A stretch of 64,000 bases of DNA from Escherichia coli (GTDB lineage: Bacteria > Pseudomonadota > Gammaproteobacteria > Enterobacterales > Enterobacteriaceae): the NCBI RefSeq assembly GCF_003334335.1, contig NZ_QOWQ01000010.1; one strand, 5' to 3'. A model generated the notes under the pieces. The model had not been told where the DNA came from. It was given only the letters and a program-made list of their open reading frames with translations, and made no database searches. The stretch's first letter is position 1. Each line of letters opens with the position of its first letter. The position numbers and the translations under genes are program-made. Positions 8,604 through 63,764 of the stretch are shown here, piece by piece.

Positions 8604-9791
<1,188 letters not shown>

Positions 9792-9809: not shown

Positions 9810-9920
<111 letters not shown>

Positions 9921-9942
9921 AAGCGCACTTTGTCAATAATCT

Positions 9943-9974
9943 GAAGCCCCGGCCATGTGCCGGGGTTTCTTTTT
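9943..9974 (+). terminator. Rho-independent terminator downstream of obgE
   Basis: Hairpin GAAGCCCCGGCCATGTGCCGGGGTTTC followed by TTTTT. Confidence 0.65.
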
Positions 9975-9976
9975 GA

Positions 9977-18759: not shown

Positions 18760-20385
18760 ATGACAGTATTCAACAAATTTGCTAGAACTTTTAAATCTCA
18801 TTGGTTGTTGTATCTTTGTGTTATTGTTTTTGGTATTACGAACTTAGTCGCTTCTTCCGGAGCGCATATGGTTCAGCGCTTGCTGTTCTTCGTTCTGACC
18901 ATCCTGGTTGTAAAACGTATATCATCCCTTCCGCTTCGCCTGCTTGTTGCCGCACCATTTGTGTTACTGACTGCGGCAGACATGAGTATTAGCCTCTATT
19001 CATGGTGTACCTTTGGTACAACTTTCAATGATGGATTTGCGATTAGTGTGCTCCAGAGTGATCCGGATGAAGTTGTCAAAATGCTGGGGATGTATATCCC
19101 TTATCTATGTGCCTTTGCTTTTTTATCCCTTCTTTTTTTGGCAGTAATAATAAAATATGATGTTTCCTTGCCGACAAAAAAAGTGACAGGAATATTATTG
19201 CTGATTGTCATTTCGGGCAGTTTATTTTCCGCTTGTCAATTTGCTTATAAAGATGCAAAAAATAAAAAAGCGTTCAGTCCATATATACTAGCGTCGCGAT
19301 TTGCTACCTATACGCCGTTTTTCAATCTCAACTATTTTGCTTTAGCAGCGAAAGAGCATCAAAGATTACTCTCAATTGCAAACACGGTGCCGTATTTTCA
19401 ATTATCAGTCAGGGATACAGGTATTGATACCTACGTGTTGATTGTGGGGGAGTCTGTACGTGTCGACAATATGTCTTTGTATGGATATACACGCTCTACG
19501 ACACCGCAAGTTGAAGCACAAAGAAAACAGATCAAACTGTTTAATCAAGCAATAAGCGGCGCACCTTACACTGCGCTGTCGGTTCCCCTTTCTTTAACTG
19601 CTGATTCTGTTTTGAGTCATGACATTCATAATTACCCCGACAACATTATTAATATGGCTAATCAAGCAGGATTTCAGACTTTCTGGCTAAGCTCGCAATC
19701 CGCTTTTCGGCAGAATGGTACAGCAGTTACCAGTATCGCCATGCGCGCCATGGAAACAGTTTATGTCAGAGGATTTGATGAATTGTTGTTGCCGCATTTA
19801 TCGCAAGCATTACAGCAAAATACGCAGCAAAAGAAACTGATTGTTCTTCATTTAAATGGAAGCCATGAACCGGCTTGTAGCGCCTATCCGCAATCCAGCG
19901 CCGTGTTTCAACCGCAGGACGATCAGGATGCCTGCTATGACAACTCCATTCATTACACAGATAGTTTGCTAGGTCAGGTTTTTGAATTATTAAAAGATCG
20001 CCGCGCCTCGGTCATGTATTTTGCCGACCACGGCCTGGAACGTGACCCTACGAAGAAGAACGTCTATTTTCATGGAGGCAGGGAGGCTAGCCAGCAGGCA
20101 TATCATGTCCCGATGTTTATCTGGTATAGCCCCGTTCTTGGGGATGGCGTGGATCGCACAACGGAAAACAACATCTTTTCGACAGCTTACAATAATTACC
20201 TTATTAATGCGTGGATGGGGGTAACAAAGCCGGAACAGCCGCAAACGCTTGAGGAAGTGATTGCACACTATAAAGGAGACTCACGGGTTGTGGATGCAAA
20301 CCATGATGTTTTCGATTATGTGATGCTCAGAAAGGAGTTTACAGAGGATAAGCAAGGTAACCCCACCCCTGAAGGGCAGGGTTGA
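18760..20385 (+). CDS. yhbX: Sulfatase-family membrane protein YhbX (EptA-like putative phosphoethanolamine transferase)
   Basis: ORF-track 18727..20385 trimmed to ATG 18760 (MTVFNKFARTFKSHWLL...), 541 aa; N-terminal TM segments plus C-terminal sulfatase-like domain; AT-rich. Confidence 0.85.
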   Translation: MTVFNKFARTFKSHWLLYLCVIVFGITNLVASSGAHMVQRLLFFVLTILVVKRISSLPLRLLVAAPFVLLTAADMSISLYSWCTFGTTFNDGFAISVLQSDPDEVVKMLGMYIPYLCAFAFLSLLFLAVIIKYDVSLPTKKVTGILLLIVISGSLFSACQFAYKDAKNKKAFSPYILASRFATYTPFFNLNYFALAAKEHQRLLSIANTVPYFQLSVRDTGIDTYVLIVGESVRVDNMSLYGYTRSTTPQVEAQRKQIKLFNQAISGAPYTALSVPLSLTADSVLSHDIHNYPDNIINMANQAGFQTFWLSSQSAFRQNGTAVTSIAMRAMETVYVRGFDELLLPHLSQALQQNTQQKKLIVLHLNGSHEPACSAYPQSSAVFQPQDDQDACYDNSIHYTDSLLGQVFELLKDRRASVMYFADHGLERDPTKKNVYFHGGREASQQAYHVPMFIWYSPVLGDGVDRTTENNIFSTAYNNYLINAWMGVTKPEQPQTLEEVIAHYKGDSRVVDANHDVFDYVMLRKEFTEDKQGNPTPEGQG

Positions 20386-47037: not shown

Positions 47038-47898
47038 ATGAAACAACACCAATCGGCGGATAATTCTCAGGGCCAGCTTTACATTGTACCGACGCCAATC
47101 GGCAATCTGGCGGATATCACCCAGCGTGCGTTAGAGGTATTACAGGCCGTTGATCTGATTGCCGCCGAGGATACTCGTCACACCGGTTTATTGCTGCAAC
47201 ATTTTGGGATTAATGCCCGGTTGTTTGCGCTGCACGACCATAACGAACAACAAAAAGCTGAAACGCTGCTGGCGAAGCTGCAAGAGGGGCAAAACATTGC
47301 GCTGGTTTCCGATGCCGGAACGCCGCTAATTAACGATCCTGGCTACCATCTGGTGCGTACCTGCCGTGAAGCGGGGATCCGCGTGGTGCCGCTACCCGGG
47401 CCGTGTGCTGCTATCACTGCGTTAAGCGCAGCGGGTTTACCCTCTGACCGTTTCTGTTACGAAGGCTTTTTACCTGCCAAATCAAAAGGCCGCCGTGATG
47501 CGCTAAAAGCCATTGAAGCGGAGCCGCGCACGCTGATTTTTTATGAATCTACCCACCGTCTGTTAGATAGCCTGGAAGATATCGTTGCGGTATTAGGCGA
47601 ATCCCGCTACGTGGTTCTGGCGCGTGAGCTGACCAAAACCTGGGAAACCATTCACGGCGCGCCCGTTGGCGAGCTGCTGGCGTGGGTAAAGGAAGATGAA
47701 AACCGTCGCAAAGGCGAAATGGTGCTGATTGTCGAAGGTCATAAAGCACAGGAAGAAGACTTACCCGCCGATGCCCTGCGCACGCTGGCGCTGCTACAGG
47801 CAGAACTGCCGCTGAAAAAAGCGGCGGCGCTGGCCGCAGAAATTCACGGCGTGAAGAAAAATGCGCTGTATAAGTATGCGCTGGAGCAGCAGGGGTAA
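47038..47898 (+). CDS. rsmI: 16S rRNA C1402 2'-O-methyltransferase RsmI (YraL)
   Basis: 286-aa ORF with tetrapyrrole-methylase-type fold motif [14 protein letters not shown]. Confidence 0.93.
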
Positions 47899-47907
47899 CA
47901 GTGCCGA

Positions 47908-47940
47908 AGCGTTGCGTTAATCAAAACGCAACGTCTTCTT
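47908..47940. terminator. Hairpin terminator between convergent rsmI and yraK
   Basis: GTTGCGTT-AATCAA-AACGCAAC stem-loop followed by T-rich tract in the 42-bp gap. Confidence 0.5.
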
Positions 47941-49032
47941 TTACCGCACGATGACGGTAATGGTGGCTGTGCCCTGAAATTTTCCTGTTTCCAGCTCACC
48001 ACCGACCAGATTAACTGGCCAGGCGCGCATATTGACGGTGCCATGCCCGGAAGGATCAACGGGAAGGATACCGTTCTGAAAAGGAATATTTGCAACTCCG
48101 CCGCCGAGATTTTCAATACGAATACCGACATCGGGCACATTGTCTGAACTTCTTCGCCTGGCGACCAGGTTGTACTGGTCTACTACCCCAGTTGTACCGT
48201 CGATGCGCATTTGCAACGAGTTTTTAATCTTTGAAGTATCACCACAGTCATAAGTGATATCAAAGTCTACTGGAGTAAAACCGTCTGGCATGGCATTGCG
48301 GGTGGTAAACTTCTGACCATTGATGAATCCAAAATTAACCTTAATAACATCGCCCTGATTAATTTTGCACGACTGTGGGGCGGTGAGATTTCCCTGAATC
48401 GATAACTTGACTAAATCATGGAAGTCACCTGTAGACGGGCTTCCCATTCCATCGACCCACGCGCCTTTAATGACGGCAATATCCGTTTTCGGAATGGTCA
48501 TCGAGCCGAGAAATGGCTTGGTGACATACAGGGTAAAGGTGGTGTTCGCACCAATATTAACGGGTCCATAACGAGACGTATCACCCTGGCAAACACCCGT
48601 TTGGGTTGCAGCAGAATATACCGTGTTGTTTTTTATCTGTGTGAATCGGGTGTTAACAGAGACAACCTGGTCGGTTGTGAGTCCTGGAATGTCGTTTGCC
48701 TGTAATGTGGTTTTAATATCCAGGCTGTCATTGAGTTTGTAATATCCTGTCTGATGTCCAGTGGTGGTAAGTACGGGGCTGACCATATAGACAAGTTTAA
48801 CTGCCTTACCCGCAGAGCAGGAACAGGCGTATTGCCAGTTAGTGCTACTTAGCGTTGCAGAGGTAAACTCCCGTCCTGTCACGTTATCTGTCTGGTTCAC
48901 CGTAACATCATCAACCACACTGCTGTAATTTGTCGCACCGCTAGTGCTGTCGGCTCCACACCCTCCTGAGGAGGCATAAGCGCAGGATGTGGATATCAAC
49001 AAAAGACCTGTTATAAGAGGCGCTCTTTTCAT
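47941..49032 (-). CDS. yraK: Fimbrial adhesin-like subunit YraK
   Basis: ORF-track 47941..49290 trimmed to ATG 49032 (MKRAPLITGLLLISTSCAYA signal peptide), 363 aa; last gene of chaperone-usher operon. Confidence 0.8.
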   Translation of the reverse strand: MKRAPLITGLLLISTSCAYASSGGCGADSTSGATNYSSVVDDVTVNQTDNVTGREFTSATLSSTNWQYACSCSAGKAVKLVYMVSPVLTTTGHQTGYYKLNDSLDIKTTLQANDIPGLTTDQVVSVNTRFTQIKNNTVYSAATQTGVCQGDTSRYGPVNIGANTTFTLYVTKPFLGSMTIPKTDIAVIKGAWVDGMGSPSTGDFHDLVKLSIQGNLTAPQSCKINQGDVIKVNFGFINGQKFTTRNAMPDGFTPVDFDITYDCGDTSKIKNSLQMRIDGTTGVVDQYNLVARRRSSDNVPDVGIRIENLGGGVANIPFQNGILPVDPSGHGTVNMRAWPVNLVGGELETGKFQGTATITVIVR

Positions 49033-49042
49033 TTTTTTATCC

Positions 49043-51559
49043 TTAATGGCACTGCGCTGTGCCTTGTAATACAGAGGTTGTAGGTTCTGAATCCGGTGTA
49101 CTGAAAGCAAACTGACATTGTTGATCTGCCTGATTTCCCCAGCGTACAGTCCAGCTTTGTGATTTACTCGATATCCCAGAGAGATATAGTATGCCGCCCT
49201 CATCGACGATACTTTGTTGCCCTGTATCATCGTTGCTGGCAAGAGCGCCAAAGGGCAACGGTTTACCGTTGCGATCGCTGACTGTAACAAGTACGCGATA
49301 ACCGATATTGGCGTTGAAACGCGCCGCTACCATTGCACCTCTGTTGGGCACCACAAACTGTGTTGTTTGTTCAAGATCGACGTTATCGGGCAGCTGCGTA
49401 GTATCTACCGAGAGACGGTTTTCCTGATAAGTTGTGAGATAAGGAACCACTGCATAGCCAAAAGGATCGGTAGCAATCCCCGGATAGTTTTGTATCCTCA
49501 CGCCAGATGCTCCGTTAGCATCGATAAGCGCAAAAGCGTTGCCCAGATATTGCGAGAGCGTCACGCCATGAGGATGGATAACCACGCCGCCGGTAACGCC
49601 GTAATTGTATTGGCTGCTGTCATTACCGTAGCTGTATCCGGCACTGAAGGTGCCATAAGGTGAACGGTAACTGGCGTTCAGGCTACTGTTATGGTTGTTA
49701 TCGTCATCCAGACTTTGTTCCAGGCTATAGCTCAGGCGACCATCATCCAGCAGTGAGCCATCAAGACGCATTTCATGTTGGGTTGGGCGATCTTTCTGGC
49801 TGGTCATCTGATAGGAAACCCGGCTACGCGGTAACCAGCGTTCTAACGGAATACTGAGATTCAAAGAGAGTGCGCGGTCATTATTTTGATCAGTGTAGCG
49901 GCTGTATTGATAATTCAGGCTGTAACCAACTCCCCATTGCTGGCCGGAAACCCCAACAGAGATATTCCTGTTTTTATCGTTATTGCCCCAATAGTCTTGC
50001 TGCGAACCGGAGGCATACAGACTTACCCCATCAAATATTGTCTGGCTGATGTTGAATTGAATTTCACTTTTTTGGCGACTGTTATAGTCCCAATTGCGGG
50101 TATTGGCTTCATTAAAACTAAAATAGCCATCGTTGGTATAGCGATAGTAGCTGACAGCGATATTGGTGTTGGTTTCCGGGATATCTTTGATGTACTGCGT
50201 ACGCCATTGATAGCCATGAAAAGAGTGCTGGTTATCGAATTGGGTGTCAGCTCTGTTGATATCCATCGACAACGCGCCCAGTGCGCCAAGTGTGCCGCCG
50301 ATACCGATCCCCAGCGCATAATAATCTTCAGAACCGAGCAGGCCGCCATACAGCGTAAAAGTATTATTCAAACCATATATTGCCGTGGCTTCAGCAAATT
50401 CGGGTTCCTTGCTATCACTGTTTGCATCAGCGCGATAGCGTCCAGCGGTCGCGCTATACTTTAGATGCCCAGGTCGCTGCATCATGGGTAATGAAGAATA
50501 AGGCTGGATAAAGCGACGTTGTGTACCGTCACTTTCTTCAATCGTGACTTCTAAATCGCCGCTGTTGGAAGAGGGGTAGAGATCGTTAATTTCAAAGGCA
50601 CCCGCTGACACGTTGCTTTGATAGATCACATAACCATTTTGCCTGATAGTCACGATTGCACTACTGTTTGCGATACCGCGTACCGTTGGGGCAAATCCGC
50701 GCTGGCTGTTTGGCAACATATTATCGTCGGAAGCGAGTTGCACGCCAGTAAAGGTGTAGCTGGAAAAAATACTGCCGCTGGTGGCGCTTTCTCCCAGAAG
50801 CAACTGAGACTTCAACGCCTTGATATCACGTTGTAAATAACTACTGATGGTATTCCAGCTTGATGTCTGATCGTTGCGTGTCCATGTGGAATAGTTGCGT
50901 AATCGCCAGGGGCCAAAATTAGCACCATTTTGCATATTCAGGTACTGTCGTTGGCTACGATTGCCCTGGCGGTAACGGTTATCAGAACCTGTAAACGAGT
51001 AGTTGGTAAACAGCGTTGGTATACCATCGTCCCAACGAGAAGGGGAGACGTAACCTCTTGCATCACGGTACAGTGCAATTTGGGGAATGCTCAAATTAAG
51101 TTGCTGATGATTGAAATCAAATTCAGCAGCTGTACCGGGAATGATTTGTTCAAGCGAGTTGATCACGCTATCGTCATCTTTTTCAGCCAGCGCCGGGATT
51201 TCATCCACCTTAATACCCAGCTCACGTAGTTGTTCTACCGTAAACTGTGGCTGCAGAAGTTGCTCTGCATTGGCGGTAAATGTAATTTTTTTCTGTGAAA
51301 CCTTCTTTTTATTCAGCCAGATATCAACCTGATAAGTTCCTGGTAGTTGTGCATATTTTTTTGAAAAACGCGACAGATCGGTTGTTTGCATACCACTTTT
51401 TGTGGTTTCCAGCATAATGGGGTCGAAATAATACTCTTCGGCGTTAGCGGTAGTGCAAAGCATGCCGCTGCCAGTGAGCACCATCGGCAAACAACGTTTG
51501 ATGATGAGCGCCAACTGTTTCGGTGTGCGTTTATGTCCCTGGTGGTGTCGTTGTGGCAT
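49043..51559 (-). CDS. yraJ: Fimbrial outer-membrane usher YraJ
   Basis: ORF-track 49043..51634 trimmed to ATG 51559 (MPQRHHQGHKRTPKQLALIIKRCLPMVLTGSGMLCTTANA), 838 aa, usher family. Confidence 0.88.
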   Translation of the reverse strand: MPQRHHQGHKRTPKQLALIIKRCLPMVLTGSGMLCTTANAEEYYFDPIMLETTKSGMQTTDLSRFSKKYAQLPGTYQVDIWLNKKKVSQKKITFTANAEQLLQPQFTVEQLRELGIKVDEIPALAEKDDDSVINSLEQIIPGTAAEFDFNHQQLNLSIPQIALYRDARGYVSPSRWDDGIPTLFTNYSFTGSDNRYRQGNRSQRQYLNMQNGANFGPWRLRNYSTWTRNDQTSSWNTISSYLQRDIKALKSQLLLGESATSGSIFSSYTFTGVQLASDDNMLPNSQRGFAPTVRGIANSSAIVTIRQNGYVIYQSNVSAGAFEINDLYPSSNSGDLEVTIEESDGTQRRFIQPYSSLPMMQRPGHLKYSATAGRYRADANSDSKEPEFAEATAIYGLNNTFTLYGGLLGSEDYYALGIGIGGTLGALGALSMDINRADTQFDNQHSFHGYQWRTQYIKDIPETNTNIAVSYYRYTNDGYFSFNEANTRNWDYNSRQKSEIQFNISQTIFDGVSLYASGSQQDYWGNNDKNRNISVGVSGQQWGVGYSLNYQYSRYTDQNNDRALSLNLSIPLERWLPRSRVSYQMTSQKDRPTQHEMRLDGSLLDDGRLSYSLEQSLDDDNNHNSSLNASYRSPYGTFSAGYSYGNDSSQYNYGVTGGVVIHPHGVTLSQYLGNAFALIDANGASGVRIQNYPGIATDPFGYAVVPYLTTYQENRLSVDTTQLPDNVDLEQTTQFVVPNRGAMVAARFNANIGYRVLVTVSDRNGKPLPFGALASNDDTGQQSIVDEGGILYLSGISSKSQSWTVRWGNQADQQCQFAFSTPDSEPTTSVLQGTAQCH

Positions 51560-51587
51560 TCCCTGATGACCTGTGTTTTTATATTTT

Positions 51588-52283
51588 TTATTGCAGTGGA
51601 CGAGTTTCTGTCCCGGAACTGCCGCCATAATCATTGATCGCAGCCCATTTCACGTTCTTTCCGCCAGATGCAGGAAGTGGTAACTGTTTATGTTCTCCGG
51701 GCGCGATATATTCAATTTTGCTTGTGAGATCGGTTTTATCGACTGCCAGTCCGGCAAATACGACGTAATATTCAGTTGGGTTATATATATTGAGTGAATG
51801 GTCACTACGTTTAAATTCCAGTGATTTCCACGCATCGTTTACCCGTCCCTTCAGGTGTGCGGGGCGATAAAACATTTTGATCCGTGTTTTAAATACCAGC
51901 GTCAACTCGTTAGCATTAACATCATCTGATTTTTTCTTTGCTGGAATGGCACGAACATTAATGTAGAACAGCGACTCTTTATTTTCAGGCAGGTTATCAG
52001 CTGTTTTAATAATTCGCAGTGATGAGTCATCGCCAGCCTCAAGACGAAATAGCGGTGGGGTTATAATAAATGGGGCACGGCTTTTACCATCTATATTATC
52101 TACCCATGATTGCAGTAAATAAGGCGTTTCTGCGCCTTTGTTTGCGACAGGTAACGCAGCCTCTTTGCGGCTGGCATCATAGATCACTCGCGTTCGCTGT
52201 AAAACGATTCCTCCTGCAAGCGCCTGGCCAATACAGAAGCTACACAACAAGGTTAATATCACCGCGAATGTTCGTTTTGACAT
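51588..52283 (-). CDS. yraI: Periplasmic pilus chaperone YraI
   Basis: 231-aa ORF with signal peptide, PapD-like chaperone fold. Confidence 0.9.
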
Positions 52284-52362
52284 AGTTATTTTTCAACCTG
52301 ATACAACGAGAAAGAGGAAGGAAAAGGGCGTTATCTGACAGGTCAGATAACGCCCTAACGTA

Positions 52363-52947
52363 TTAACGGTAATCCAGCGTTACGTTAACGATAGCGTCTG
52401 CTTCCCCTGGGGTGATTTCTGATGGAACTACGGTTGATACGTAGTAAGCGATGAGGTCAACATTGACAATACCATTGGATTCCGCCGGGATCTGATAAAC
52501 CGTGTTATCATTGCCCATAGCATTCAGTGGCATAATGTTTCCGCTTTCCGCATCGTCAATACGGATACCCACACCTGTTGCCGCTATGCCAGCAAAAGAG
52601 CCTACTTTTGCCAGATTAGGGAAGTTAGGGACGGTGCCATTATCTCGCGTTTCCAGCCATAGACGGAAAGACGCTTCAACGTTGCCGTTATCGTGCTCCC
52701 ACCCAGTCATTGGGCAGTTAACTAAAGGAATAGTGAATGGAATTTTTGGGCTACGCTCGCCAATATTACGAAACTGTTCGGCATTATAGTGACCAAGAGC
52801 AACTTCAATTTTCTTATCAGAGTCATTGATTTCACAAGCGGATTTTAAAATCTCGCCATCAAAAACTATTTCACCATCGGTTGCAGCGGCATTACCTGCG
52901 AAAAGCGCAAGTAAGCCCGCAATAGCTGTTTTTGTAACTTTATTCAT
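52363..52947 (-). CDS. yraH: Fimbrial subunit YraH
   Basis: 194-aa ORF with signal peptide MNKVTKTAIAGLLALFAGNAAA; first gene of yraHIJK. Confidence 0.88.
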   Translation of the reverse strand: MNKVTKTAIAGLLALFAGNAAATDGEIVFDGEILKSACEINDSDKKIEVALGHYNAEQFRNIGERSPKIPFTIPLVNCPMTGWEHDNGNVEASFRLWLETRDNGTVPNFPNLAKVGSFAGIAATGVGIRIDDAESGNIMPLNAMGNDNTVYQIPAESNGIVNVDLIAYYVSTVVPSEITPGEADAIVNVTLDYR

Positions 52948-53347
52948 ATATAACCTTATCCTTGTAACAAGTACATAATCATATTTAATGTGAATATATG
53001 TTCAACATCTTTAAAGATTATACAGGCAGAAATATTTCATTGAACATTAAATAGACTGAGCTTTAAGATTATATTTATATGCAAATATTTGATATTTTCA
53101 TTATATTGATATCAATTTTCTATGTATTCAAAAGAGTATAAATGCCTGACTTTGCTGCGCCAGGGGGCGAGTCAGAATACGAGGTGATTTATTAATAGAA
53201 CAAGTTATATGTATATCTAAAATTAAATTGTTGAACATAACTCCTTTTGCTATCGGCGTTATGTTCAACCCAGTCAAATGTTATTTAATATAATGCGTGA
53301 CTGTTACATAAGTTAATTTAAACATTTTGAGCAAATTTTTCATCTGG

Positions 53348-54103
53348 TTAGGTGTTAATTAAACAAATAAAGTTACTGTGCAGCCATAAAAATGAAGCCG
53401 GGATAGCGGTAGAGACTTTAGCCGTGAGAAAACGATCTGTCGCATCCTGCTTTCCTTCGCCAGTCACCAGTAACAAAACTTCGCGGGCATTGAGAATATC
53501 CTTCAGGCCTAAGGTGATCCCACGAGTCACGGGGCGACCCGCGGTTTTTAACATCTCATGTTGCTGTGTTCTGGCATCAAGTTGACTGATATGGCAGGCC
53601 GGTTGCAGGCTTTCTCCCGGTTCGTTCAGCCCAAGATGACCGTTTTTCCCCAATCCGAGAACGCATAAATCCAGACCGCCTTTGCGCGCAATCAGGTTCG
53701 TTACCCGTTCGCACTCTGTCTCATTTATCTCTTCGGAGCGAAAGCTGATGAGCTGGTCTTCACGTAGCCCCAGCGGCTGCACGATATGCTGTTGCAGGAA
53801 AGTTTCGCAGGTGCCTGGCATCGTTAATGGCAGATCCACCCATTCGTCGAGCTTCACGAAGGTGAGCTGGCTGACATCAACCTGCTGCTGGTGGATTTTT
53901 TCTACCAGATAATGATACGTCAGTAATGGCGTGGCTCCGGTCGCCAGGCAAATCACGGCATTCGGTTTGCTACGGATCACGGCCAATAAATATTCGCTGG
54001 CACGTTCACTTAACGCCGTATAGTTTTCAACTTGCTGAAGGGTTTGCACAGGATGAAATTCCTTAAGTAAAGAGGCACCACCAGACGCAGTGCCTCGTTC
54101 CAT
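53348..54103 (-). CDS. agaI: Putative galactosamine-6-phosphate deaminase/isomerase AgaI
   Basis: 251-aa ORF of the NagB/glucosamine-6-P deaminase family; last gene of agaS operon. Confidence 0.9.
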   Translation of the reverse strand: MERGTASGGASLLKEFHPVQTLQQVENYTALSERASEYLLAVIRSKPNAVICLATGATPLLTYHYLVEKIHQQQVDVSQLTFVKLDEWVDLPLTMPGTCETFLQQHIVQPLGLREDQLISFRSEEINETECERVTNLIARKGGLDLCVLGLGKNGHLGLNEPGESLQPACHISQLDARTQQHEMLKTAGRPVTRGITLGLKDILNAREVLLLVTGEGKQDATDRFLTAKVSTAIPASFLWLHSNFICLINT

Positions 54104-54895
54104 TTACAAAATGCCGAATGCGGAACAAACAATAGAGAGCACAAAAGTCACGCCGATTAACAGCACCGGATGCGCTTTTTTCACCCGCAGGAAGTAATAC
54201 ATCAGCAGGGTGTAGGCCATCGGTAAAATGTTCGGGAAGACTTTATCGAAGAAATCCTGCTGCAGCGCAACGCTGTGGGTATTGTCGATGGCAAACGATG
54301 TCACCACGTTAATATGCACATACGAAGCGATCAGCCCGCCGATTACCGTGATCCCGAGGATGGTTGCCGAACGGGCAATCATCTGCGAGTTCTCTCGCAC
54401 TTTATCGATCGCCTTCACGCCGACTGAATAACCGACGTGGGTCCAGCCGACGCGCAGGAAAAAGATAAGCAGGTAAACGGCGAAAAATAGAATCGGCCCC
54501 AGCAGGTTTCCCTGGCTGGCAAATGATGAGCAAATTCCCGCCATAATCGGCAACAAAGTAAACCAGAAAATCGCATCGCCAATCCCGGCGATTGGGCCAA
54601 ACAGTGCCACTTTGAGGCCTTTAATGGTGTCGCGGTTTTCTCCTTTTTCTTCCATCGAAATTAATAACCCCATCAGGAATCCGACCAGATTCGGGTGGGT
54701 ATTAATAAATTCGAGGTTATCTTTCATCGCCGCGCTTAAGCCCGGTTTGTCGTCCTTATAAATCTTTTTCAGGATCGGCAACATCGCCCAGGTAAAACCG
54801 CCCGCCTGCATCCTTTCGTAGTTAAAGCTCGCTTGCAGCAGCGACGAACGAAAGCCCAGACGGGTGATATCTTTTTTACTGATTTCAGATCCCAT
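54104..54895 (-). CDS. agaD: GalNAc/GalN PTS EIID component AgaD
   Basis: ORF-track 54104..55042 trimmed to ATG 54895 (MGSEISKKDITRLGFRSSLLQASFNYERMQ), 263 aa, mannose-family IID. Confidence 0.9.
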   Translation of the reverse strand: MGSEISKKDITRLGFRSSLLQASFNYERMQAGGFTWAMLPILKKIYKDDKPGLSAAMKDNLEFINTHPNLVGFLMGLLISMEEKGENRDTIKGLKVALFGPIAGIGDAIFWFTLLPIMAGICSSFASQGNLLGPILFFAVYLLIFFLRVGWTHVGYSVGVKAIDKVRENSQMIARSATILGITVIGGLIASYVHINVVTSFAIDNTHSVALQQDFFDKVFPNILPMAYTLLMYYFLRVKKAHPVLLIGVTFVLSIVCSAFGIL

Positions 54896-55688
54896 TGCTG
54901 TAGTCCTCTTCTTCATTTTTACTGGCAACGGGCTGCGGTTGCGCTTGCTGCCGGGATTTCGCATTGAAAAACTCATACACCGCAAAGCCTGCGCCCAGTA
55001 CGGCAACCGGCAACAGGTTGCTGACCTGGATGTAGCAAACAAACAGGAAACCGGCGATCAGGTAAGGGATATATTGCGCTTTGAACATTACGCGCAGCAG
55101 CAAGCCAAAACCAACGGCAGGCAGAATACCGCCAGCCACTTCAAAGCCGTGGGTCAGCCAGGCGGGCATCGCTTTCACCAGCGCCTGCATCGCCCCCTGT
55201 GCCAGGTAAGTACAGAGGAAAGCAATCACCGCATACGCTGAAGCGACGATGAGCATCGTTGTCCAGTTAAGCCGGGAAAACGCTGCCGTATCCGCCTCTT
55301 TCGCGCATTTATCGGCTTTGGTCATAAATAATGAGAAAGCGGAATAGAAGAACAGAATGACGTACTGCATTAACAAACTAAACGGCAGGCCAAGACCAAT
55401 TGCTGTTTTGGCATCAACGCCCGTAGACCATGCAATGACGGTGGTCATCAGACCCGCCATAATCGGGTTGGGCGGCTGAACACCACCTGCAGGGGTTAAT
55501 CCGGCGAAAGCCAACTCTGTCAGACCACCGGTAATTAAGCCAGTCTGAATATCACCGAGAATAGCGCCAGTTAGGGTACAAACGATTATCGGGCGGAATA
55601 AAAATAAGGCTTCCAGCCAAAAATCAATCCCCAGAACAAAAACTAACGCCGCCAGGGATAATCCCTGAAGTAGGGTTATTTCATGCAT
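54885..55688 (-). CDS. agaC: GalNAc/GalN PTS EIIC component AgaC
   Basis: 267-aa membrane ORF, mannose-family IIC. Confidence 0.9.
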   Translation of the reverse strand: MHEITLLQGLSLAALVFVLGIDFWLEALFLFRPIIVCTLTGAILGDIQTGLITGGLTELAFAGLTPAGGVQPPNPIMAGLMTTVIAWSTGVDAKTAIGLGLPFSLLMQYVILFFYSAFSLFMTKADKCAKEADTAAFSRLNWTTMLIVASAYAVIAFLCTYLAQGAMQALVKAMPAWLTHGFEVAGGILPAVGFGLLLRVMFKAQYIPYLIAGFLFVCYIQVSNLLPVAVLGAGFAVYEFFNAKSRQQAQPQPVASKNEEEDYSNGI

Positions 55689-55726
55689 TTTTATTACCTC
55701 AAACCAATATTAAGGCGATTTTAGAT

Positions 55727-56203
55727 TTAGTCAGGGATTTGTTCTTTTTGATCGCCAGGGACGTCCTGAATGAAAACATTCACGCCACGTTGTTTAATAA
55801 AACGTAAGTCCGTGAGATCCTGGTCATCGACATAAACTTTACTGCTGATTTGCTTTTTCCCTTCCGAGAAATGCATATTGCCGACGTTGACATCTTTCAG
55901 GTCAATACCACCTTCTACCAATTTACGTACCGTTTGTGGCGTACGGCAAATCAGGAAGATCTTCTGATGTGGTGCAGCTTTGCCGATGACGTTAATGGTT
56001 TTTTCGATAGTAAAGAAACGAATGCCAAAGCCGTAGGTTTCCGCGGTAATACCCATTAATTTCTGTTGAATATCATCGTTAGCGACAACATCATCCACGA
56101 CTACCAGCAGATTTGCACCGATGGTGGATGTCCAGGTCACGCCAACCTGACCGTGAACCAGACGGTTATCAATACGGGTTAAGAGAATATTTGGACTGGT
56201 CAT
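55727..56203 (-). CDS. agaB: GalNAc/GalN PTS EIIB component AgaB
   Basis: 158-aa ORF MTSPNILLTRIDNRLVHGQVGVTW..., mannose-family IIB with phospho-histidine motif. Confidence 0.92.
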   Translation of the reverse strand: MTSPNILLTRIDNRLVHGQVGVTWTSTIGANLLVVVDDVVANDDIQQKLMGITAETYGFGIRFFTIEKTINVIGKAAPHQKIFLICRTPQTVRKLVEGGIDLKDVNVGNMHFSEGKKQISSKVYVDDQDLTDLRFIKQRGVNVFIQDVPGDQKEQIPD

Positions 56204-56369
56204 TGTGTAATCCTCACCATAAAGTTGAATAATATAATTTTTTTAAATATATTATTGTTGCGATATTGTAGTGATGTATTTATTAAGGTTTAGTTATCTC
56301 CTTTTCCATTAAGGCACTCCCCGATATTAATCGGGAAGTACATTGGGATAAATCATAAAAAACTAATGA

Positions 56370-57242
<873 letters not shown>

Positions 57243-58397
57243 TTATGCCTGCCACGGATGAATGATTACGCCTTGCACCACGCGGTTAACGGTGCCACTG
57301 GCTGATGGGGTATCCGGCGTATTGCCCATGTGCAGCGACTGCATCAGTGCAAACGTCTGGGCGTACATCAGGAAGCAAAATGCCTGCTCAACGTCGATAA
57401 AGTGACGTGACGGTGGCAGGATGATATGTGGACCGGCAGCGACGATGTCGCTGCTTTCCGCGGCGATGGCGATTACACGCATTGCCTGGTTGTCACGGCG
57501 AAGTTCAGCCAGCAGATCAAGATCATACTGACGGGTGTAAGGGTGGCTGGAGACAAATACCACCACCAGCGTTTCGTCATCGACCAGCGATTTTGGTCCA
57601 TGACGGAATCCGGTTGGAGAATCATAAAAGGCCGCCAGTTTACCCGCCGTCAGTTCCAGCACTTTCAGCGCCGACTCGCGTGCTGCGCCCTGTAAGCCAC
57701 CGCTACCGAGATAAACGATCCGTTTCCACGGTGCGTAACCAAACACACCTTCGCTGAAATCGCCCAGTGAGGTCAGGATCGCCTGGCAACGATCCGCCAC
57801 GTCGCGGAAGGTTTGGCTGTTGATCGTCTCAGGTGCGAAAACCGCGAGGCAGCTGGCCATCATGGTGGTAATGCTGCTGGTCATCGCAAAGCCGCGATCG
57901 TGCGTTTCTGCGGGCATCAGCAGGGCAAACGCGTTATCGCTGTTGATCGCGTTTTGGTAAAGAGCGCCCGCTTCGTTGCAGGTGATCGGCAGGTGATAGC
58001 ATTCCGGTACAAATTGATTTGCCAGTTCCACGGCTGCGACGCTTTCCGGGCTGTTGCCGGATCGACCGAAGGAGATCAACAGCAGCGGATGAGCTGGGTT
58101 CAGGTAGTCCATCGGATTGGTGACCAGATCGGTGGTCGGTACGGCGCTGAAGTTTTTACCGGTATGGCTGGCGAGCCACGGCGCGATGATGTCACCGATA
58201 AATGCCGACGTTCCGGCTCCGGTCAGGATGATCCGCAGATTCTCTTTGCGCAGTAACGGTTCAAGGAAGTTATTGAGCGCGGAACGTAGCGCGTCGATGT
58301 TGGTGAGTGAACGGATCCATGCGCGAGGCTGATGGCGGATCTCTTTTTCAGTCCATGTACCGGTTGCGGCGGCAGCAGGGGTGTAATTTTCTGGCAT
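57243..58397 (-). CDS. agaS: SIS-domain sugar-phosphate isomerase/deaminase AgaS
   Basis: 384-aa ORF with two SIS domains; first gene of agaS-kbaY-agaBCDI. Confidence 0.92.
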   Translation of the reverse strand: MPENYTPAAAATGTWTEKEIRHQPRAWIRSLTNIDALRSALNNFLEPLLRKENLRIILTGAGTSAFIGDIIAPWLASHTGKNFSAVPTTDLVTNPMDYLNPAHPLLLISFGRSGNSPESVAAVELANQFVPECYHLPITCNEAGALYQNAINSDNAFALLMPAETHDRGFAMTSSITTMMASCLAVFAPETINSQTFRDVADRCQAILTSLGDFSEGVFGYAPWKRIVYLGSGGLQGAARESALKVLELTAGKLAAFYDSPTGFRHGPKSLVDDETLVVVFVSSHPYTRQYDLDLLAELRRDNQAMRVIAIAAESSDIVAAGPHIILPPSRHFIDVEQAFCFLMYAQTFALMQSLHMGNTPDTPSASGTVNRVVQGVIIHPWQA

Positions 58398-58439
58398 AAC
58401 TCAATCCTTAGTCTGATGAACTTGACGTCGGGCGTTGTC

Positions 58440-58580
58440 GCTTTCACTTGCCTTTCGTTTCATTTCACTTGGTGATGTCTTTCGTTGATTAAAATCTATA
58501 GAAAAGAAACTGAAAGTTCAATGGAGAAAAAAGAAATAAAACGAAATTTGTGATCGTTGAAAGAAAAGATAAAGGAAGCA
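58440..58580 (-). promoter_or_regulatory. agaS promoter region with candidate AgaR (DeoR-family) operator repeats
   Basis: Repeated CTTTCGTTTCATTTC / AAACGAAA-type motifs (e.g. CCTTTCGTTTCATTTCACTT, AATAAAACGAAATTTGTG) upstream of agaS. Confidence 0.45.
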
Positions 58581-58590
58581 AAAGGGATTG

Positions 58591-58672
58591 CTGGATGCGG
58601 CGCAAACGCTTTATCCGGCCTTGCGGTCACCAACTGTAGGTCGGATAAGACGCGTTAGCGTCGCATCCGACA
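58591..58672. repeat. REP/BIME-type palindromic repeat
   Basis: GGATGCGGCGCAAACGCTTTATCCGGCC...GTAGGTCGGATAAGACGCGTTAGCGTCGCATCCGAC between agaA and the agaS promoter. Confidence 0.65.
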
Positions 58673-58747
58673 CCGCTGCACAGATCAAAACGAAAGAAAA
58701 AGAAAGGCCTTACGGGGGAAGTGAAGGCCCAATAAAGGAGCAAACTA

Positions 58748-59881
58748 TCAAAACGAAGCTAATTGACCCTGAATCCAGATTTGTTGCACATGTAGCCCGC
58801 TATCCAGCGCAACGACGCTGGCGCGTTTGCCCGGTTTAAGCGATCCCAGAACACCATCAACACCCAGCATTCGCGCCGGATGCAGCGACGCCATATGGAT
58901 GGCTTCCGCAGGCGTTACGCCCGTCAACTCGACCATATTGCGCACTGCCGCATCAACAGACAGCGTACTGCCCGCCAGCCCACCAGACGCGGTACGGACA
59001 ACGCCACCGTGCATCTGCACTTCTTCACCACATAACGTATAGCGACCATCCGGCATCCCAGCTGCCTGCATCGCGTCGGTGATCAGTACGATTCTCTCTT
59101 TCGCACAGCAACAACACAGCGACATTGCCGCCGGATGCACATGATGACCATCGGCTATCAGTTCCAGCCAGGCGCGCTTGTCCGTTAATCCCGCGCCAAC
59201 CATTCCCGGTTCGCGGTGATGTAAACCTGTCATCCCGTTATAGCAATGCACCAGGCCGTCGGCACCAGCATCAAATGCGGCGCGGGTTTGTTGCCAGGTC
59301 GCCGCGCTATGCCCCAGCATCACCCTTACGTTTTGCTGTTTAAGATGGCGGATGGCCTGCAATGCCCCTTCTTTTTCCGGTGCCAGCGCTACCACACGTA
59401 AGGTGTGCTGAGAAACGGCAATCAACTGATCCAGCTCGGCAATTTCAAGCTCGCGAAACAACTCCGGCGGATGCGCGCCTTTATTCTGCGGCGTGAAGTA
59501 CGGTCCTTCGAGATAACTCCCCAGCACTTGCGCACCAGGTCCGCCGCGTTGGCAACGTTGAGCAATACGTTTCAGCGCCGCATGAATGGTATTAAGCGGC
59601 GTGGTTACGGTGGTCGGTAACCAACTGCCGACACCTTCGCGTGCCTTGTGCATTGCCAGCTTGTCGAGTACATCCGGCGCGTCATCCATTACATCAACGC
59701 CCGCACCACCGTGTACATGGGTGTCGATGTAAGCAGGGCAGAGCAGTTCCGCATCGCGTTCAGTCACGCCCGCTGGAATCGGTTCGATTGCTGCGATGAC
59801 ACCGTCAGCAATACGCAACTGATGGTCATCGAGCCATCCCTCTTCAGTCAGCAGCCTTCTGGCGCGCAGAACGTGTGTCAT
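58748..59881 (-). CDS. agaA: N-acetylgalactosamine-6-phosphate deacetylase AgaA (full length)
   Basis: ORF-track 58748..59902 trimmed to ATG 59881 (MTHVLRARRLLTEEGWLDDHQLRIADGVI...), 377 aa, NagA-like amidohydrolase; ATG overlaps agaF stop (ATGA). Confidence 0.88.
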   Translation of the reverse strand: MTHVLRARRLLTEEGWLDDHQLRIADGVIAAIEPIPAGVTERDAELLCPAYIDTHVHGGAGVDVMDDAPDVLDKLAMHKAREGVGSWLPTTVTTPLNTIHAALKRIAQRCQRGGPGAQVLGSYLEGPYFTPQNKGAHPPELFRELEIAELDQLIAVSQHTLRVVALAPEKEGALQAIRHLKQQNVRVMLGHSAATWQQTRAAFDAGADGLVHCYNGMTGLHHREPGMVGAGLTDKRAWLELIADGHHVHPAAMSLCCCCAKERIVLITDAMQAAGMPDGRYTLCGEEVQMHGGVVRTASGGLAGSTLSVDAAVRNMVELTGVTPAEAIHMASLHPARMLGVDGVLGSLKPGKRASVVALDSGLHVQQIWIQGQLASF

Positions 59882-60312
59882 ATTCCTTCCTCGACCGGAC
59901 ATTCTTCATGGCAGCGGCCTAACTCGTCCACCAGACTGGTCAGCCCTCGGTGTCCACACTCCAGCGCCTGTACACGGAATTCTTCACCGCTTAACCCTTC
60001 GCGCTCCAGCACCATCTCCAGTAGCAGTTGCAAATTGGTGCCGGTGATCACTTCACAGCCCGGTTTTTGCATCGCCAGCGTTGAAGCTACGCGAAACGGC
60101 GTGCCGCCCAGCAAATCCGTCAGAAAAACAATGCCGTCTTCACAATCCAGTTGGGCGATGGCCTCTTCAAGCTGCGATGTAAGCAGCGCGGTGCTTGAGG
60201 TTTCCGGAAAATCGATGGCGATAAACTGCGATTGCTCACCGAGAATTTGCTTCATTGCTTTTTCCATGCCGCTGGCAAACCCGCCATGCCCTGTCAAAAT
60301 AATACTTAACAT
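59878..60312 (-). CDS. agaF: GalN PTS EIIA component AgaF
   Basis: 144-aa ORF MLSIILTGHGGFASGMEKAMKQILG..., mannose-family IIA. Confidence 0.88.
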   Translation of the reverse strand: MLSIILTGHGGFASGMEKAMKQILGEQSQFIAIDFPETSSTALLTSQLEEAIAQLDCEDGIVFLTDLLGGTPFRVASTLAMQKPGCEVITGTNLQLLLEMVLEREGLSGEEFRVQALECGHRGLTSLVDELGRCHEECPVEEGI

Positions 60313-60329
60313 CTAATACCTCATTGTAT

Positions 60330-61214
60330 TTAAAGGAAATGGCAGAATTTACCGACGATGCCGAGAACCACGGTAACTGCAATCAGACGCAGCGGACTCC
60401 AGCCGCGGCGTACCAACCAAAACATGGTCAGGGTGTAGACCAACGGTAAGAAGGCCGGCATCAGTTTGTCGATAACATCAGCCTGTAACTTAACCACTGC
60501 GTCGCCCGCCGTGATTTCCAGCGTGGTGCTTAAACGAACATAGGTTGCCACCAGCGCACCGATTACCGTCATCCCAACGATAGACGCAGCATGGCCGACT
60601 TTTTTGGTATTCGCTTTAATCAGTGGAATCGCCGCCACGCCCATGCGGTAAGCATAATGCGCCAGACCAAAACGCAGCCCCAGGTGTACCACGTTGAACA
60701 GCACAATAAAGACGACTGCGCCAAGAATGGAGCCTTGCAATGCCAGACTGGCTCCAATCCCGCCACAAATCGGCAGTAGCGTTAGCCAGAACATTGCATC
60801 GCCAATCCCGCCAAGCGGCGCACCGACGGCAATTTTGGTGCTCTGAATACTGTTAACGTCCTGCTTAGAACGCTCCATCGCAAGGATAATGCCGATAACA
60901 AACGTCACCAGAAACGGATGGGTATTGAAGAAACCCATATGCCCCTTCATGGCGCGCGCCAGGTCGCGTTTATTAGTGTGGATCTTTTTCAGAGCAGGCA
61001 GCAGACCGTACAACCAGCCAGAAGCCTGCATACGTTCGTAGTTAAAAGACGCTTGTAACAGCATGGAACGCCAGGCGACGCGGTTGATATCTTTTTTCGT
61101 CAGCTCCGCGCCAATGCTCTGATCTTCATACACGTTTTCATTGACGCCAGTCAGCAATGTTTCTTCGTTTTCACTGACGTTCGGCAGGGTGGTTTGATTA
61201 GATGCCATCTTCAA
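60330..61214 (-). CDS. agaE: GalN PTS EIID component AgaE
   Basis: 294-aa membrane ORF, paralogous to AgaD (shared SLLQASFNYERMQA motif). Confidence 0.88.
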   Translation of the reverse strand: MKMASNQTTLPNVSENEETLLTGVNENVYEDQSIGAELTKKDINRVAWRSMLLQASFNYERMQASGWLYGLLPALKKIHTNKRDLARAMKGHMGFFNTHPFLVTFVIGIILAMERSKQDVNSIQSTKIAVGAPLGGIGDAMFWLTLLPICGGIGASLALQGSILGAVVFIVLFNVVHLGLRFGLAHYAYRMGVAAIPLIKANTKKVGHAASIVGMTVIGALVATYVRLSTTLEITAGDAVVKLQADVIDKLMPAFLPLVYTLTMFWLVRRGWSPLRLIAVTVVLGIVGKFCHFL

Positions 61215-61977
61215 ATTCCTCTTTCTGTGCCGCAGGTTGAGTCGGTTCAGGAGATTTACGCAGCAAGTCGATCAGCGCCATCGCCAGCGCAGCGGCAGCA
61301 ATAGCCAGCACTGGTAACTTGAGCCAGGCGGCGGCAACAAAGCCCAGGATGAAGTAGGGGATGTAGACGTTTTTCATCATGATTTTCAGCAGCACGGCAA
61401 AACCGATTGCTGGCATGATGCCGCCCGCGACGCCGAGGCCGTCGATTAATCGTTGCGGCAGGACATCAATGATGGTTTTTGCATGTTCCGCGCCGAAGTA
61501 GATAGGCAGGAAAGCGCAGAGAAAATAGAAAATGCCGAGTGCCAGCAGTGCCAGATAGTTCACGCGTTCAATGCCGCGAGTATCGGCGTTCTCCGCCATC
61601 CGGTCGCAGCGAGACATCACGCCGGACATCACCGAGAACAGGAAGGTAATCCCCATCTGTACTGCGACAGCGAAAGGTACGGCGACACCTACTGCGACAT
61701 CGGGTTTCACGCCAGTAGTAATGGCAAACGCCGTGCCGACGATAGTACCGATAATCACGTTAGGCGGCTGTGCGCCCGCCAGCGGGGCCAGCCCCATCCA
61801 CACCAGTTCCAGCGTACCGCCGGTTAAAATTCCGGTATGCAGATCGCCAAGTACCAGCCCGACCAACGGGCCGAGGACCACCGGGCGGTGCATATGGGTT
61901 AGGCCGTTAAACATATCCAGGCCAGCGATAAAGGCGATAATGCCCAACGCAAATGCCTGCAACAGGCTGATTTCCAT
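61198..61977 (-). CDS. agaW: GalNAc PTS EIIC component AgaW (full length)
   Basis: 259-aa membrane ORF, paralogous to AgaC. Confidence 0.88.
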   Translation of the reverse strand: MEISLLQAFALGIIAFIAGLDMFNGLTHMHRPVVLGPLVGLVLGDLHTGILTGGTLELVWMGLAPLAGAQPPNVIIGTIVGTAFAITTGVKPDVAVGVAVPFAVAVQMGITFLFSVMSGVMSRCDRMAENADTRGIERVNYLALLALGIFYFLCAFLPIYFGAEHAKTIIDVLPQRLIDGLGVAGGIMPAIGFAVLLKIMMKNVYIPYFILGFVAAAWLKLPVLAIAAAALAMALIDLLRKSPEPTQPAAQKEEFEDGI

Positions 61978-61987
61978 GATGAATCCC

Positions 61988-62461
61988 TCAAAGTAATTTA
62001 AAGAGGTCCACAGCAGGCTCTGTCGGGACGCCCTGAACGAAGCATTCCACCCCAGCGGTTTTCAGGTCGTTAAATGCTGCGATATCGCCCGCATCCACAG
62101 AAACCGTTTTGGCGATTTGTTGTTTGCCATTGGCGTAGTGCATATTGCCAACGTTAATGCGATTCACCGGAACGCCACCTTTCACCAGCGTCAGGAAATC
62201 GGCGGGTGTTTTACAAACCAGCAGGATTTTCTGTCGATCGGCGGCGCGATGAATGTTGTCGATAACTTTTTGCAGCGTCCAGAAACGTACGGCGATCCCT
62301 TCTGCCAGTACCATTTCCATCAGGTTTTGTTGTACCGGATCTTCGGCAACCTCATCGTTGGCTACCAGCACCAGATTTGCCCCCGCAAATCCGACCCATT
62401 GAACGCCGACCTGACCGTGAATCAAGCGTTCATCAATCCGGCTTAAAACAATATTTGGCAT
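61988..62461 (-). CDS. agaV: GalNAc PTS EIIB component AgaV
   Basis: ORF-track 61988..62497 trimmed to ATG 62461 (MPNIVLSRIDERLIHGQVGVQW...), 157 aa, SD AGAGGA upstream. Confidence 0.9.
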   Translation of the reverse strand: MPNIVLSRIDERLIHGQVGVQWVGFAGANLVLVANDEVAEDPVQQNLMEMVLAEGIAVRFWTLQKVIDNIHRAADRQKILLVCKTPADFLTLVKGGVPVNRINVGNMHYANGKQQIAKTVSVDAGDIAAFNDLKTAGVECFVQGVPTEPAVDLFKLL

Positions 62462-62483
62462 AGCGTGTTCCTCTTTGTTTTGC

Positions 62484-63764
62484 TTATTGGCCTTCACAGG
62501 CTGTGTGGTACTGCGCCAGGATGTCCTGAATATGGTTGATAATGAGTTCCCGTGGCGTTGGCTGCAGCTCGCCGGAGCGAACTTTCACGTACTGCAGCGG
62601 CAGATACTGGCTGATCAGCGGCAGCGGAATTGGTGAATCCGCCAGATTACGTACCAGATGAGCGAAAGCGTCATCAATCTGGCTGTCCGGCCAGTAATAG
62701 CGCACGCGATCCGAGTAGCTATAACCACGCGCCAGACGACGCGCGTTGCCGTCACCGTGGTAGTGGCTTTGCCAGTATTCCGGGCGGTCGAGCATCACGT
62801 CTTCCAGCACCTGACGCAGACCAGAACAGGCTTTCGCTGGCACCAGTTCTTCTTCAATCGCCGCCAGAGAGAACAGAGCTTCACGCAGGGCGAAGGTCAG
62901 CGCTGGGCCAACTTTCAGAATGGCAAAGTGGTCAATCACCAGCTGGCGCAGCGATTGCGGCGTTTGATAATCGGTAGAGTGCGCTTCGAAAATCAGCGTT
63001 TCGTAGTTTTCGACCATCTGGCTTAAGGCGCTCGCTTTGGCGGGCTGATAATCAATAACGTTGGTGTGATCGAATTCGACGCCGGGTTGAACCACCAGGG
63101 CAATGATGCGTGGCCAGATGGCATTCAAACCTTGCTTTTCAAAGGCGTGACGATGGGCTTCCAGCGTGGCGCGGGCGGCATCCGGCGTGGTGACCGCCAG
63201 CTCGCTTAAGGTTTCATGCGCGCCGCCAGGTACCGGCACTTCGGTACCAATGACATACTCCAGATCGGCTTCGCCAAAGTGTTCAAGACAGGTTTCTTCC
63301 GCCACTTTCGCCAGACGGGCGGCGCGTTCAGCCACGATGTCATCAGTTAAGGGAATCGGATCGTCCTGACAGGACATGCTGCAATCAAGGTGGATTTTTT
63401 TGAATCCTGCCGCAACGTAGCTTTTAATCAAATCATCGGCATTGGCCATTGCCTGAGCGGCCGGCAGGTTTTGCCAGCGGTTTGGCCCCAGATGGTCACC
63501 ACCCAGAATCAACGCATCCTGCGGGAAATTCAACGAGTCGGCGAGCTGACAAACAAAGCCGCGAAAATCGGCGGGCGTCATTCCGGTATAACCGCCGAAC
63601 TGGTCTACCTGATTGGAGGTTGCTTCAATCAGTAACGGCGTTTGGTTTGCACTGGCGTAGCGGATTGCAGCCTCCAGCACCAGCGGATGTGCGGAACAAA
63701 CGGCATAAATTCCATTTGTTTTGCCCGCTTTGTGCTGTCTCACCATTTCTGTCAGATGTTTCAC
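62484..63764 (-). CDS. kbaZ: Tagatose-bisphosphate aldolase non-catalytic subunit KbaZ (AgaZ)
   Basis: 426-aa [36 protein letters not shown]... initiating at GTG; first gene of kbaZ-agaVWEFA. Confidence 0.92.

Follow-up and report, generated by a model that had tools for sequence, protein, structure and literature searches.

The yraHIJK locus of Escherichia coli: a probable gamma-1-type chaperone-usher fimbrial operon with an AT-rich, H-NS-associated promoter region in a strain-variable cassette

The subject of this report is yraHIJK, a chaperone-usher fimbrial operon that lies between the genes rsmI and agaI in a 64,000-nt stretch of the Escherichia coli contig NZ_QOWQ01000010.1 (the whole of this stretch is called the window, and positions refer to it unless another locus is named). 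A listing of open reading frames (ORFs) over 45.5-56 kb contains four consecutive, uninterrupted minus-strand ORFs within 47941..52947, exactly where the initial annotation had placed yraH, yraI, yraJ and yraK in tandem; the disruption of these frames, which it had named as a way in which its reading might fail, is not seen. The DNA of 47900..53400 is 100% identical to that of K-12 MG1655 and several other strains (megablast against 5426 complete E. coli genomes), and the gene positions given here are those of the RefSeq annotation of the identical MG1655 DNA, mapped to the window. The genes are yraH (52363..52947; 194 amino acids), predicted to encode the major fimbrial subunit and annotated as 'fimbrial protein'; yraI (51588..52283; 231 amino acids), encoding a periplasmic chaperone of the PapD/FimC type; yraJ (49043..51559; 838 amino acids), encoding an outer-membrane usher; and yraK (47941..49032; 363 amino acids), encoding a predicted two-domain tip adhesin. 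In the same listing, the flanks are rsmI on the plus strand (47038..47898) and agaI on the minus strand (53348..54103), so that the operon does sit between rsmI and the aga cluster, as had been claimed. The longer mechanical ORFs of yraK (449 amino acids) and yraJ (863 amino acids) are in-frame upstream extensions into the preceding gene, and normal signal peptides result from the annotated starts.

Domain and structure searches confirmed the roles assigned to the four products. YraH has a signal peptide, an N-terminal extension (TDGEIVFDGEIL) and a cysteine pair; its residues 27-193 match the Pfam Fimbrial domain PF00419 (E = 9e-28), and its nearest solved structures in a sequence search of the PDB are FimI and FimA (E = 6e-9 and 3e-8). 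YraI carries PapD_N (E = 5e-41) and PapD_C, matches FimC in the PDB (E = 1e-43) and has LpfB and FimC as its top NCBIfam models. In YraJ, PapC_N, Usher (E = 7e-216) and PapC_C are all present, and the match to FimD is very strong (E = 3e-174); the NCBIfam ranking is led by the fimbrial usher model PRK15193, with LpfC nearly tied and FimD next, all under their equivalog cut-offs. The gene for the PapD-like chaperone adjoins that for the usher, with a gap of 28 bp between yraI and yraJ. We take YraH, the product of the first gene of the operon, to be the major subunit because of the gene order and because of a hairpin that lies behind yraH, which is described below.

The annotation of yraK as an adhesin-like subunit is borne out by its two-domain layout and by its closest structural relative. 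The Fimbrial domain PF00419 is confined to residues 211-362, beyond which the protein has an extra N-terminal half. Its sole PDB match, the LpfD adhesin (5AFO; E = 1e-11), spans residues 45-360; FimH is not among the PDB matches at E <= 0.01, and the match to the NCBIfam FimH model is weak (E = 6e-10) and under the cut-off. Across the operon variants described below, the N-terminal half is less conserved than the C-terminal half (identities of 36 vs 61%, 44 vs 66% and 82 vs 90%), and this faster divergence is as expected for a receptor-binding head. YraK thus appears to fit the pattern of a FimH/LpfD-type tip adhesin, in which a putative receptor-binding domain of about 190 N-terminal residues would be followed by a pilin domain without a donor strand of its own.

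To which class of chaperone-usher systems does the operon belong? The top NCBIfam models for the operon proteins are Lpf and Fim models, and every score lies below the equivalog cut-off; yraHIJK therefore belongs to the type 1/Lpf-like group as a member in its own right. It has been classed as gamma-1 (PMC3032704), and one study groups YraJ and UshC as 'Gamma*' (PMC5717340). FimD and LpfC, the nearest relatives of YraJ among solved structures and curated models, are both gamma-1. On these grounds, yraHIJK is probably a gamma-1-type (type 1 / long-polar-fimbria-like) operon.

How variable is this locus within the species? Among the 5426 genomes, rsmI was found in 5425, and it runs on into yraK in 3520 (~65%), whereas elsewhere the homology ends with rsmI. 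A 301-bp probe spanning an empty junction detected the empty site in 1822 genomes, each with a match to at least 80% of the probe; the type strain ATCC 11775, ST131 and an O6:K2:H1 strain are among them. There, rsmI and agaI converge on each other with a 49-bp hairpin spacer in between. As for the yra region, 3270 genomes have at least 80% of it at 97.8-100% identity (megablast). The composition of the islet also deviates from that of its surroundings, with a GC content of 45.1% against 54-55% for rsmI and lpoA, and a GC content at third codon positions of 39-48% in the yra genes against 56% in rsmI and lpoA. Yra has been reported to be missing in phylogroup B2 and rarer in D (PMC8767327); the divergent strain AST85, whose rsmI is 91.7% identical, shares the same empty configuration with B2 strains. 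At the rsmI/agaI junction, yraHIJK forms a cassette that varies between strains and lies outside the core genome. The suggestion that it is an accessory islet therefore stands, with about 3520 carriers against 1822 empty sites between conserved flanks, and the objection that these might be universal core genes does not apply to a locus that is polymorphic across E. coli.

The operon is not intact in all carriers. In O157-like strains, yraK is split by the insertion sequence IS1203 and partly deleted, and other strains have IS3 or IS1 insertions or partial deletions in the yra region. In the O157-like E. coli strain 118 (locus L087), the IS1203-interrupted yraK occupies 8041..10090 of that locus, and agaI (14406..15161) contains an internal stop; the disruption and partial loss of yraK indicate that the adhesin is inactivated in this strain.

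Alignment of the junctions with the empty allele defines the full variable segment as 47895..53378. These 5484 bp replace 99 bp of the empty allele, the homology stopping at 47894 and restarting at 53379, and the segment thus covers the 3′ ends of both flanking genes (47895..47898 and 53348..53378). RsmI consequently ends in ...QQG and has 286 residues with the cassette, vs ...QQGE and 287 residues without it. The last ~10 codons of agaI lie within the segment, and the protein ends in ...LHSNFICLINT with the cassette vs ...LHNYFTCMIDEMCRR without it. A C-terminus of the form xNFICLI... is common to AgaI of all operon-bearing Escherichia haplotypes, the empty-site version being NYFTCMIDEMCRR. 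This end looks like a diverged homologue rather than a random sequence, which suggests recombinational import from a donor with the same gene order; that it is shared points to a common origin of the junction and to exchange by homologous recombination. We also considered the insertion of a mobile element and rejected it, since the boundaries at 47895/53378 carry no repeats of at least 7 nt and the cassette contains no integrase, transposase or other mobility gene and no tRNA target (ORF list and annotation). The cassette has more likely been exchanged by homologous recombination through the flanks.

The same site has other occupants. In 2 of the 5426 genomes, those of E. coli MEW and 18KM2445, a different four-gene chaperone-usher operon occupies the exact rsmI/agaI site, and its proteins are 46-64% identical to those of Yra (locus L002, 2920..7934). 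A third state was found in O145:H28 RM13514 and ~30 other genomes (locus L004, 9611..14632), in which a cassette with genes for a metallo-beta-lactamase-fold hydrolase, a LysR regulator, a MalY/PatB-like protein and a malX-like product, and with a pseudogene for a phosphotransferase-system (PTS) IIB component, stands in place of both yraHIJK and agaBCDI. Within the 1047-bp upstream spacer of the MEW operon, L002 8474..8789 shares 81% identity with the PTS-IIB/MalY junction in the O145-type cassette.

Outside E. coli, a scan of one genome per species yielded only two ushers more than 50% identical to YraJ. The first, 89% identical, belongs to Escherichia whittamii, in which the order agaI-yraHIJK-rsmI is syntenic and the operon intact; the operon proteins are 83-90% and the flank proteins 92-99% identical. 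The second, 69% identical, is that of Citrobacter sp. MGH106, whose Yra-like operon (locus L008, 6575..11551; protein identities of 51-69%) lies between the galactitol (gat) cluster and rsmI, downstream of gat and co-oriented with it. Amino-acid identities among the K-12, MEW, E. whittamii and Citrobacter variants range from 46 to 90%. These variants raise the idea that rsmI/agaI is a long-lived exchange site for deeply divergent alleles of Yra-type operons, at which adhesin heads have diversified and alleles have passed between lineages by homologous recombination via the flanks; we regard this as a tentative and rather unlikely extension of the data.

The regulatory spacer between agaI and yraH (52948..53347, upstream of the minus-strand operon) is exactly 400 bp long, and its GC content of 27.5% is the minimum of the window, which has a mean of 51.4% (standard deviation 4.8%, 400-bp windows). 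Of 6361 sliding 400-bp windows, 7 have a GC content as low, and all 7 overlap this spacer. The initial annotation was thus right to call the 400 bp upstream of yraH very AT-rich. Its mention of multiple A/T tracts stands in part: there are 11 mixed stretches of at least 8 nt composed only of A and T, but homopolymer runs of at least 4 nt are only mildly enriched (7, vs 3.75 +/- 2.4 per 400 bp elsewhere in the window). The sole other 400-bp dip in GC content below 0.34 in the 64 kb lies at ~18431..18840 (minimum 0.33). The possibility that the spacer hides an RNA or a small gene was considered and rejected; an Rfam search gave no family above threshold and stayed at noise level, no ORF of at least 50 codons is present, and the small ORFs of 20-50 codons have no support.

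Read from agaI towards yraH, the spacer consists of an AT-rich hairpin, a short GC-rich patch, the element TTGATA-17-TCAAAT and a ~170-bp promoter-proximal block. TTGATA-17-TCAAAT, which we located at 53087..53115 on the minus strand, is a promoter-like element from genomic SELEX (systematic evolution of ligands by exponential enrichment) with RpoD (PMC3946193). Alignment with the E. whittamii spacer drew attention to a second site, TGTATAAT (53017..53024, minus strand), a perfect -10 hexamer TATAAT preceded by TG. E. whittamii has the same hexamer with the same immediate surroundings, and the whole ~170-bp block from TGTATAAT to the Shine-Dalgarno sequence AAGGATAAGG is almost unchanged there, so that TGTATAAT is a candidate for the core promoter. 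The spacer also contains three to four copies of the motif TGTTGAACATA / TATGTTCAACA in both orientations (52997..53007, 53229..53244 and 53255..53269). One such pair makes up the hairpin behind agaI, and the promoter-proximal copy differs from its E. whittamii counterpart by a single mismatch; the motif could be a binding site for a regulator.

Three hairpins mark possible transcript ends. The first, a terminator-like site with a 14-bp stem and a U-rich run, lies in the yraH-yraI spacer on the minus strand (52325..52356; -25.3 kcal/mol, z = -4.6). The operons of E. whittamii, Citrobacter and the MEW type each have a strong hairpin at this post-pilin position, with unrelated stems, so that in all four divergent variants (4/4) position and structure are conserved and sequence is not. 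By analogy with pap and fim (papA, fimA), this hairpin may act as an intra-operon attenuator or as a stabiliser of the mRNA 3′ end that would give an excess of the major pilin. The second is an AT-rich inverted repeat on the minus strand (53230..53269) with a 12-bp stem followed by AAUUUAAUUUU; it lies ~80 nt past the agaI stop (-18.9 kcal/mol, z = -5.0) and is probably the terminator of the co-directional aga operon. The third (47909..47934) separates the 3′ ends of the convergent genes rsmI and yraK; it folds with -21 kcal/mol on each strand (z = -3.9 and -4.4) and looks like a terminator for rsmI on the plus strand, the same stem following yraK on the minus strand.

Is the operon expressed? 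In the work of Korea et al. from 2010, cryptic fimbrial operons of this kind were reportedly silent in the laboratory and mostly functional when their expression was forced, and several of them are said to be under H-NS control; the assembly of surface fibres after forced expression was reportedly examined there as well. A published table of 78 H-NS-bound 'promoter islands' in K-12 includes the agaI/yraH spacer (PMC3661553, Table 1), with H-NS binding marked in the Kahramanoglou and Oshima data sets from chromatin immunoprecipitation on microarrays (ChIP-chip), and this island has been tied to horizontally acquired genes by four predictors (PMC3661553). Genomic SELEX has likewise placed an RpoD promoter and an H-NS site in the spacer (PMC3946193). 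The silenced AT-rich promoter that had been proposed from the sequence accordingly agrees both with the composition measured here and with these published listings (PMC3661553, PMC3946193). The description of the operon as cryptic is similarly in line with the literature, in which yraHIJK is called cryptic or weakly expressed under laboratory conditions (PMC3032704), and the gene identities on which it was based are correct. The operon is nevertheless inducible: according to published expression data, yraH is raised by overexpression of BolA (PMC4337573), and expression of yraH, yraI and yraJ is higher in Shiga toxin-producing E. coli (STEC) strains from cases of haemolytic uraemic syndrome (PMC6033998). 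In addition, a published in-silico list predicts two GalR operator-like sites within the coding regions of yraH and yraI (MG1655 3287545 and 3288641; PMC5110547).

How might such an operon work? By homology with characterised systems, a polycistronic yraHIJK transcript would start from at least one sigma-70 promoter within the 400-bp AT-rich spacer, and coating of the spacer by H-NS, for which the occupancy is taken from the literature, would keep transcription very low in ordinary conditions. When transcription does occur, the stable hairpin behind yraH may terminate or stabilise part of the transcripts and so favour the major pilin. All four proteins would be exported by Sec, and in the periplasm YraI would assist the folding of the subunits and cap them by donor-strand complementation. 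The usher YraJ would probably accept the two-domain adhesin YraK first, an order again modelled on homologous systems, and place it at the fibre tip; it would then polymerise YraH by donor-strand exchange into a surface fibre, whose receptor specificity would reside in the fast-evolving N-terminal domain of YraK.

Taken together, yraHIJK is very probably a gamma-1-type fimbrial operon with an H-NS-silenced AT-rich promoter, carried on a strain-variable cassette. Four results weigh against this reading. First, the cassette contains no dedicated regulator gene. Second, the operon has no gene for a minor adaptor subunit of the FimF, FimG or LpfE type, and the fibre architecture may therefore be simpler than that of type 1 fimbriae. 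Third, TTGATA-17-TCAAAT is not conserved in the aligned E. whittamii spacer, and its use in vivo is therefore uncertain. Fourth, a simple sigma-70 consensus scan over 5.7 kb found no enrichment of promoters over shuffled sequences (8 sites vs 10.3 expected, with 2 in the spacer); the label 'promoter island' thus rests on the published algorithm.

The organisation of the locus also suggests a different mode of control, in which Yra would be induced together with the use of the mucin sugars N-acetylgalactosamine and galactosamine, by read-through from agaS-kbaY-agaBCDI past the weak AT-rich hairpin at 53230..53269. The genes agaI and yraH point the same way with only 400 bp between them, this hairpin (-18.9 kcal/mol) is the sole terminator candidate between them, a simple scan of the E. 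whittamii spacer found no canonical terminator, and the operon of Citrobacter sp. MGH106 is likewise co-directional behind a tagatose-pathway cluster (gat). However, the hairpin is significantly stable and is followed by a U-rich sequence, the Citrobacter spacer starts with a GC-rich hairpin in the alignment, and an H-NS filament on the spacer would itself impede elongation. The literature search gave no supporting expression data, and we consider control by read-through improbable.

A further view, that yraHIJK is a non-functional relic that is never usefully expressed and is decaying neutrally towards loss, would account for its cryptic state in the laboratory (PMC3032704), for its absence from about one third of the genomes, for the destruction of yraK by IS1203 in O157-like strains and for the IS3/IS1 insertions or partial deletions elsewhere. 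It is difficult to reconcile with the intactness of all four ORFs in the window and with the 3270 genomes that have kept most of the region nearly unchanged. Moreover, intact orthologues with the same domain structure occur in E. whittamii and a homologous operon in a Citrobacter, and the YraK pilin domain and the post-pilin hairpin have been conserved over deep divergence, which indicates purifying selection. The response of transcription to BolA and the difference between STEC groups (PMC4337573, PMC6033998) also speak against decay, and we judge a relic to be very improbable. Finally, a phase-variation switch in the spacer, either an invertible promoter of the fimS type or a Dam/Lrp methylation switch of the pap type, is hardly credible and was rejected: many fimbrial operons are phase variable and TGTTGAACATA recurs here in both orientations, but the 400-bp spacer has no GATC site, which excludes the pap type, no recombinase or papI/papB-like gene lies within or beside the cassette, and all inverted repeats found are short; in the best pair, two arms of 15 nt lie 10 nt apart and form a hairpin rather than the borders of a switch.

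The preferred reading, a silenced gamma-1-type operon in a strain-variable cassette, is largely a confirmation of what was already known. The operon is annotated in every K-12 record, published work has classified, deleted and expressed it, and the spacer upstream of yraH had already been tabulated as an H-NS-bound promoter island. Mildly new are the exact boundaries of the cassette with their effect on the C-termini of the flanking gene products, the allelic alternatives at the rsmI/agaI site and the conserved hairpin after the pilin gene; these could serve work on adhesin diversity in E. coli. Possibly new, too, is a coupling of yra to the upstream sugar operon, since a transcriptional link between mucin-sugar use and adhesion might underlie the constant co-orientation behind a tagatose-pathway operon (aga in Escherichia, gat in Citrobacter).

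The closest known system is yraHIJK of MG1655 itself (b3142-b3145, 'Yra fimbriae'), which has the same DNA over 47900..53400, with the same genes, order, spacer and flanks. The backgrounds differ in that agaW and agaA are pseudogenes in MG1655, whereas the window is colinear with an intact aga/gam cluster over 53379..62281 and has full-length agaA/nagA, agaF, agaE, agaW, agaV and kbaZ ORFs in 58748..63764. The best 24-kb matches to the window are strains such as EC416, GDSC2BY4G and ML35. The intact aga cluster therefore indicates that the window comes from a close relative of K-12 and not from K-12 itself.

Among the characterised fimbriae, type 1 fimbriae (fimAICDFGH) share with Yra the gamma-1 assembly machinery, as is evident from the matches to FimC, FimD and FimI/FimA, as well as a tip adhesin of two domains and a regulatory region that is AT-rich and bound by H-NS; unlike them, Yra lacks FimB/FimE recombinases, an invertible fimS and FimF/FimG adaptors. 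Long polar fimbriae (lpfABCDE) are similarly close, in that LpfB and LpfD are the top NCBIfam models for the chaperone and the adhesin, LpfC is second for the usher, and YraK aligns with LpfD across both domains. The Yra scores nevertheless lie far under the Lpf equivalog cut-offs, the chromosomal locus is another one, and Yra has no fifth gene of the LpfE type.

The nearest usher relative of YraJ is reported to be UshC (ECSF_0165) of the ushABCD operon of enteropathogenic E. coli and ST131, which has the same four-gene layout, and UshC and YraJ are reported never to co-occur (PMC5717340). We considered that ush might be an allele of the rsmI/agaI site, which would explain this exclusion, and rejected the idea: judged from its locus tag, ECSF_0165 lies elsewhere, and the alternatives found at the site are the empty, MEW-type and O145-type states.

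Other cryptic operons of K-12 (sfm, ycb/elf, yad, yeh, yfc and ybg) are likewise silent in the laboratory, and the spacers adjacent to sfm, elf, yad, yeh, yfc and ybg are H-NS-bound promoter islands too (PMC3661553). Yra is not named in the main text of Wurpel et al. 2013. The Yad, Yeh and Yfc types have been described as near-universal and 'core-associated' (PMC3559732); by contrast, Yra is present in ~65% of the genomes, as a cassette that some lineages carry and others do not.

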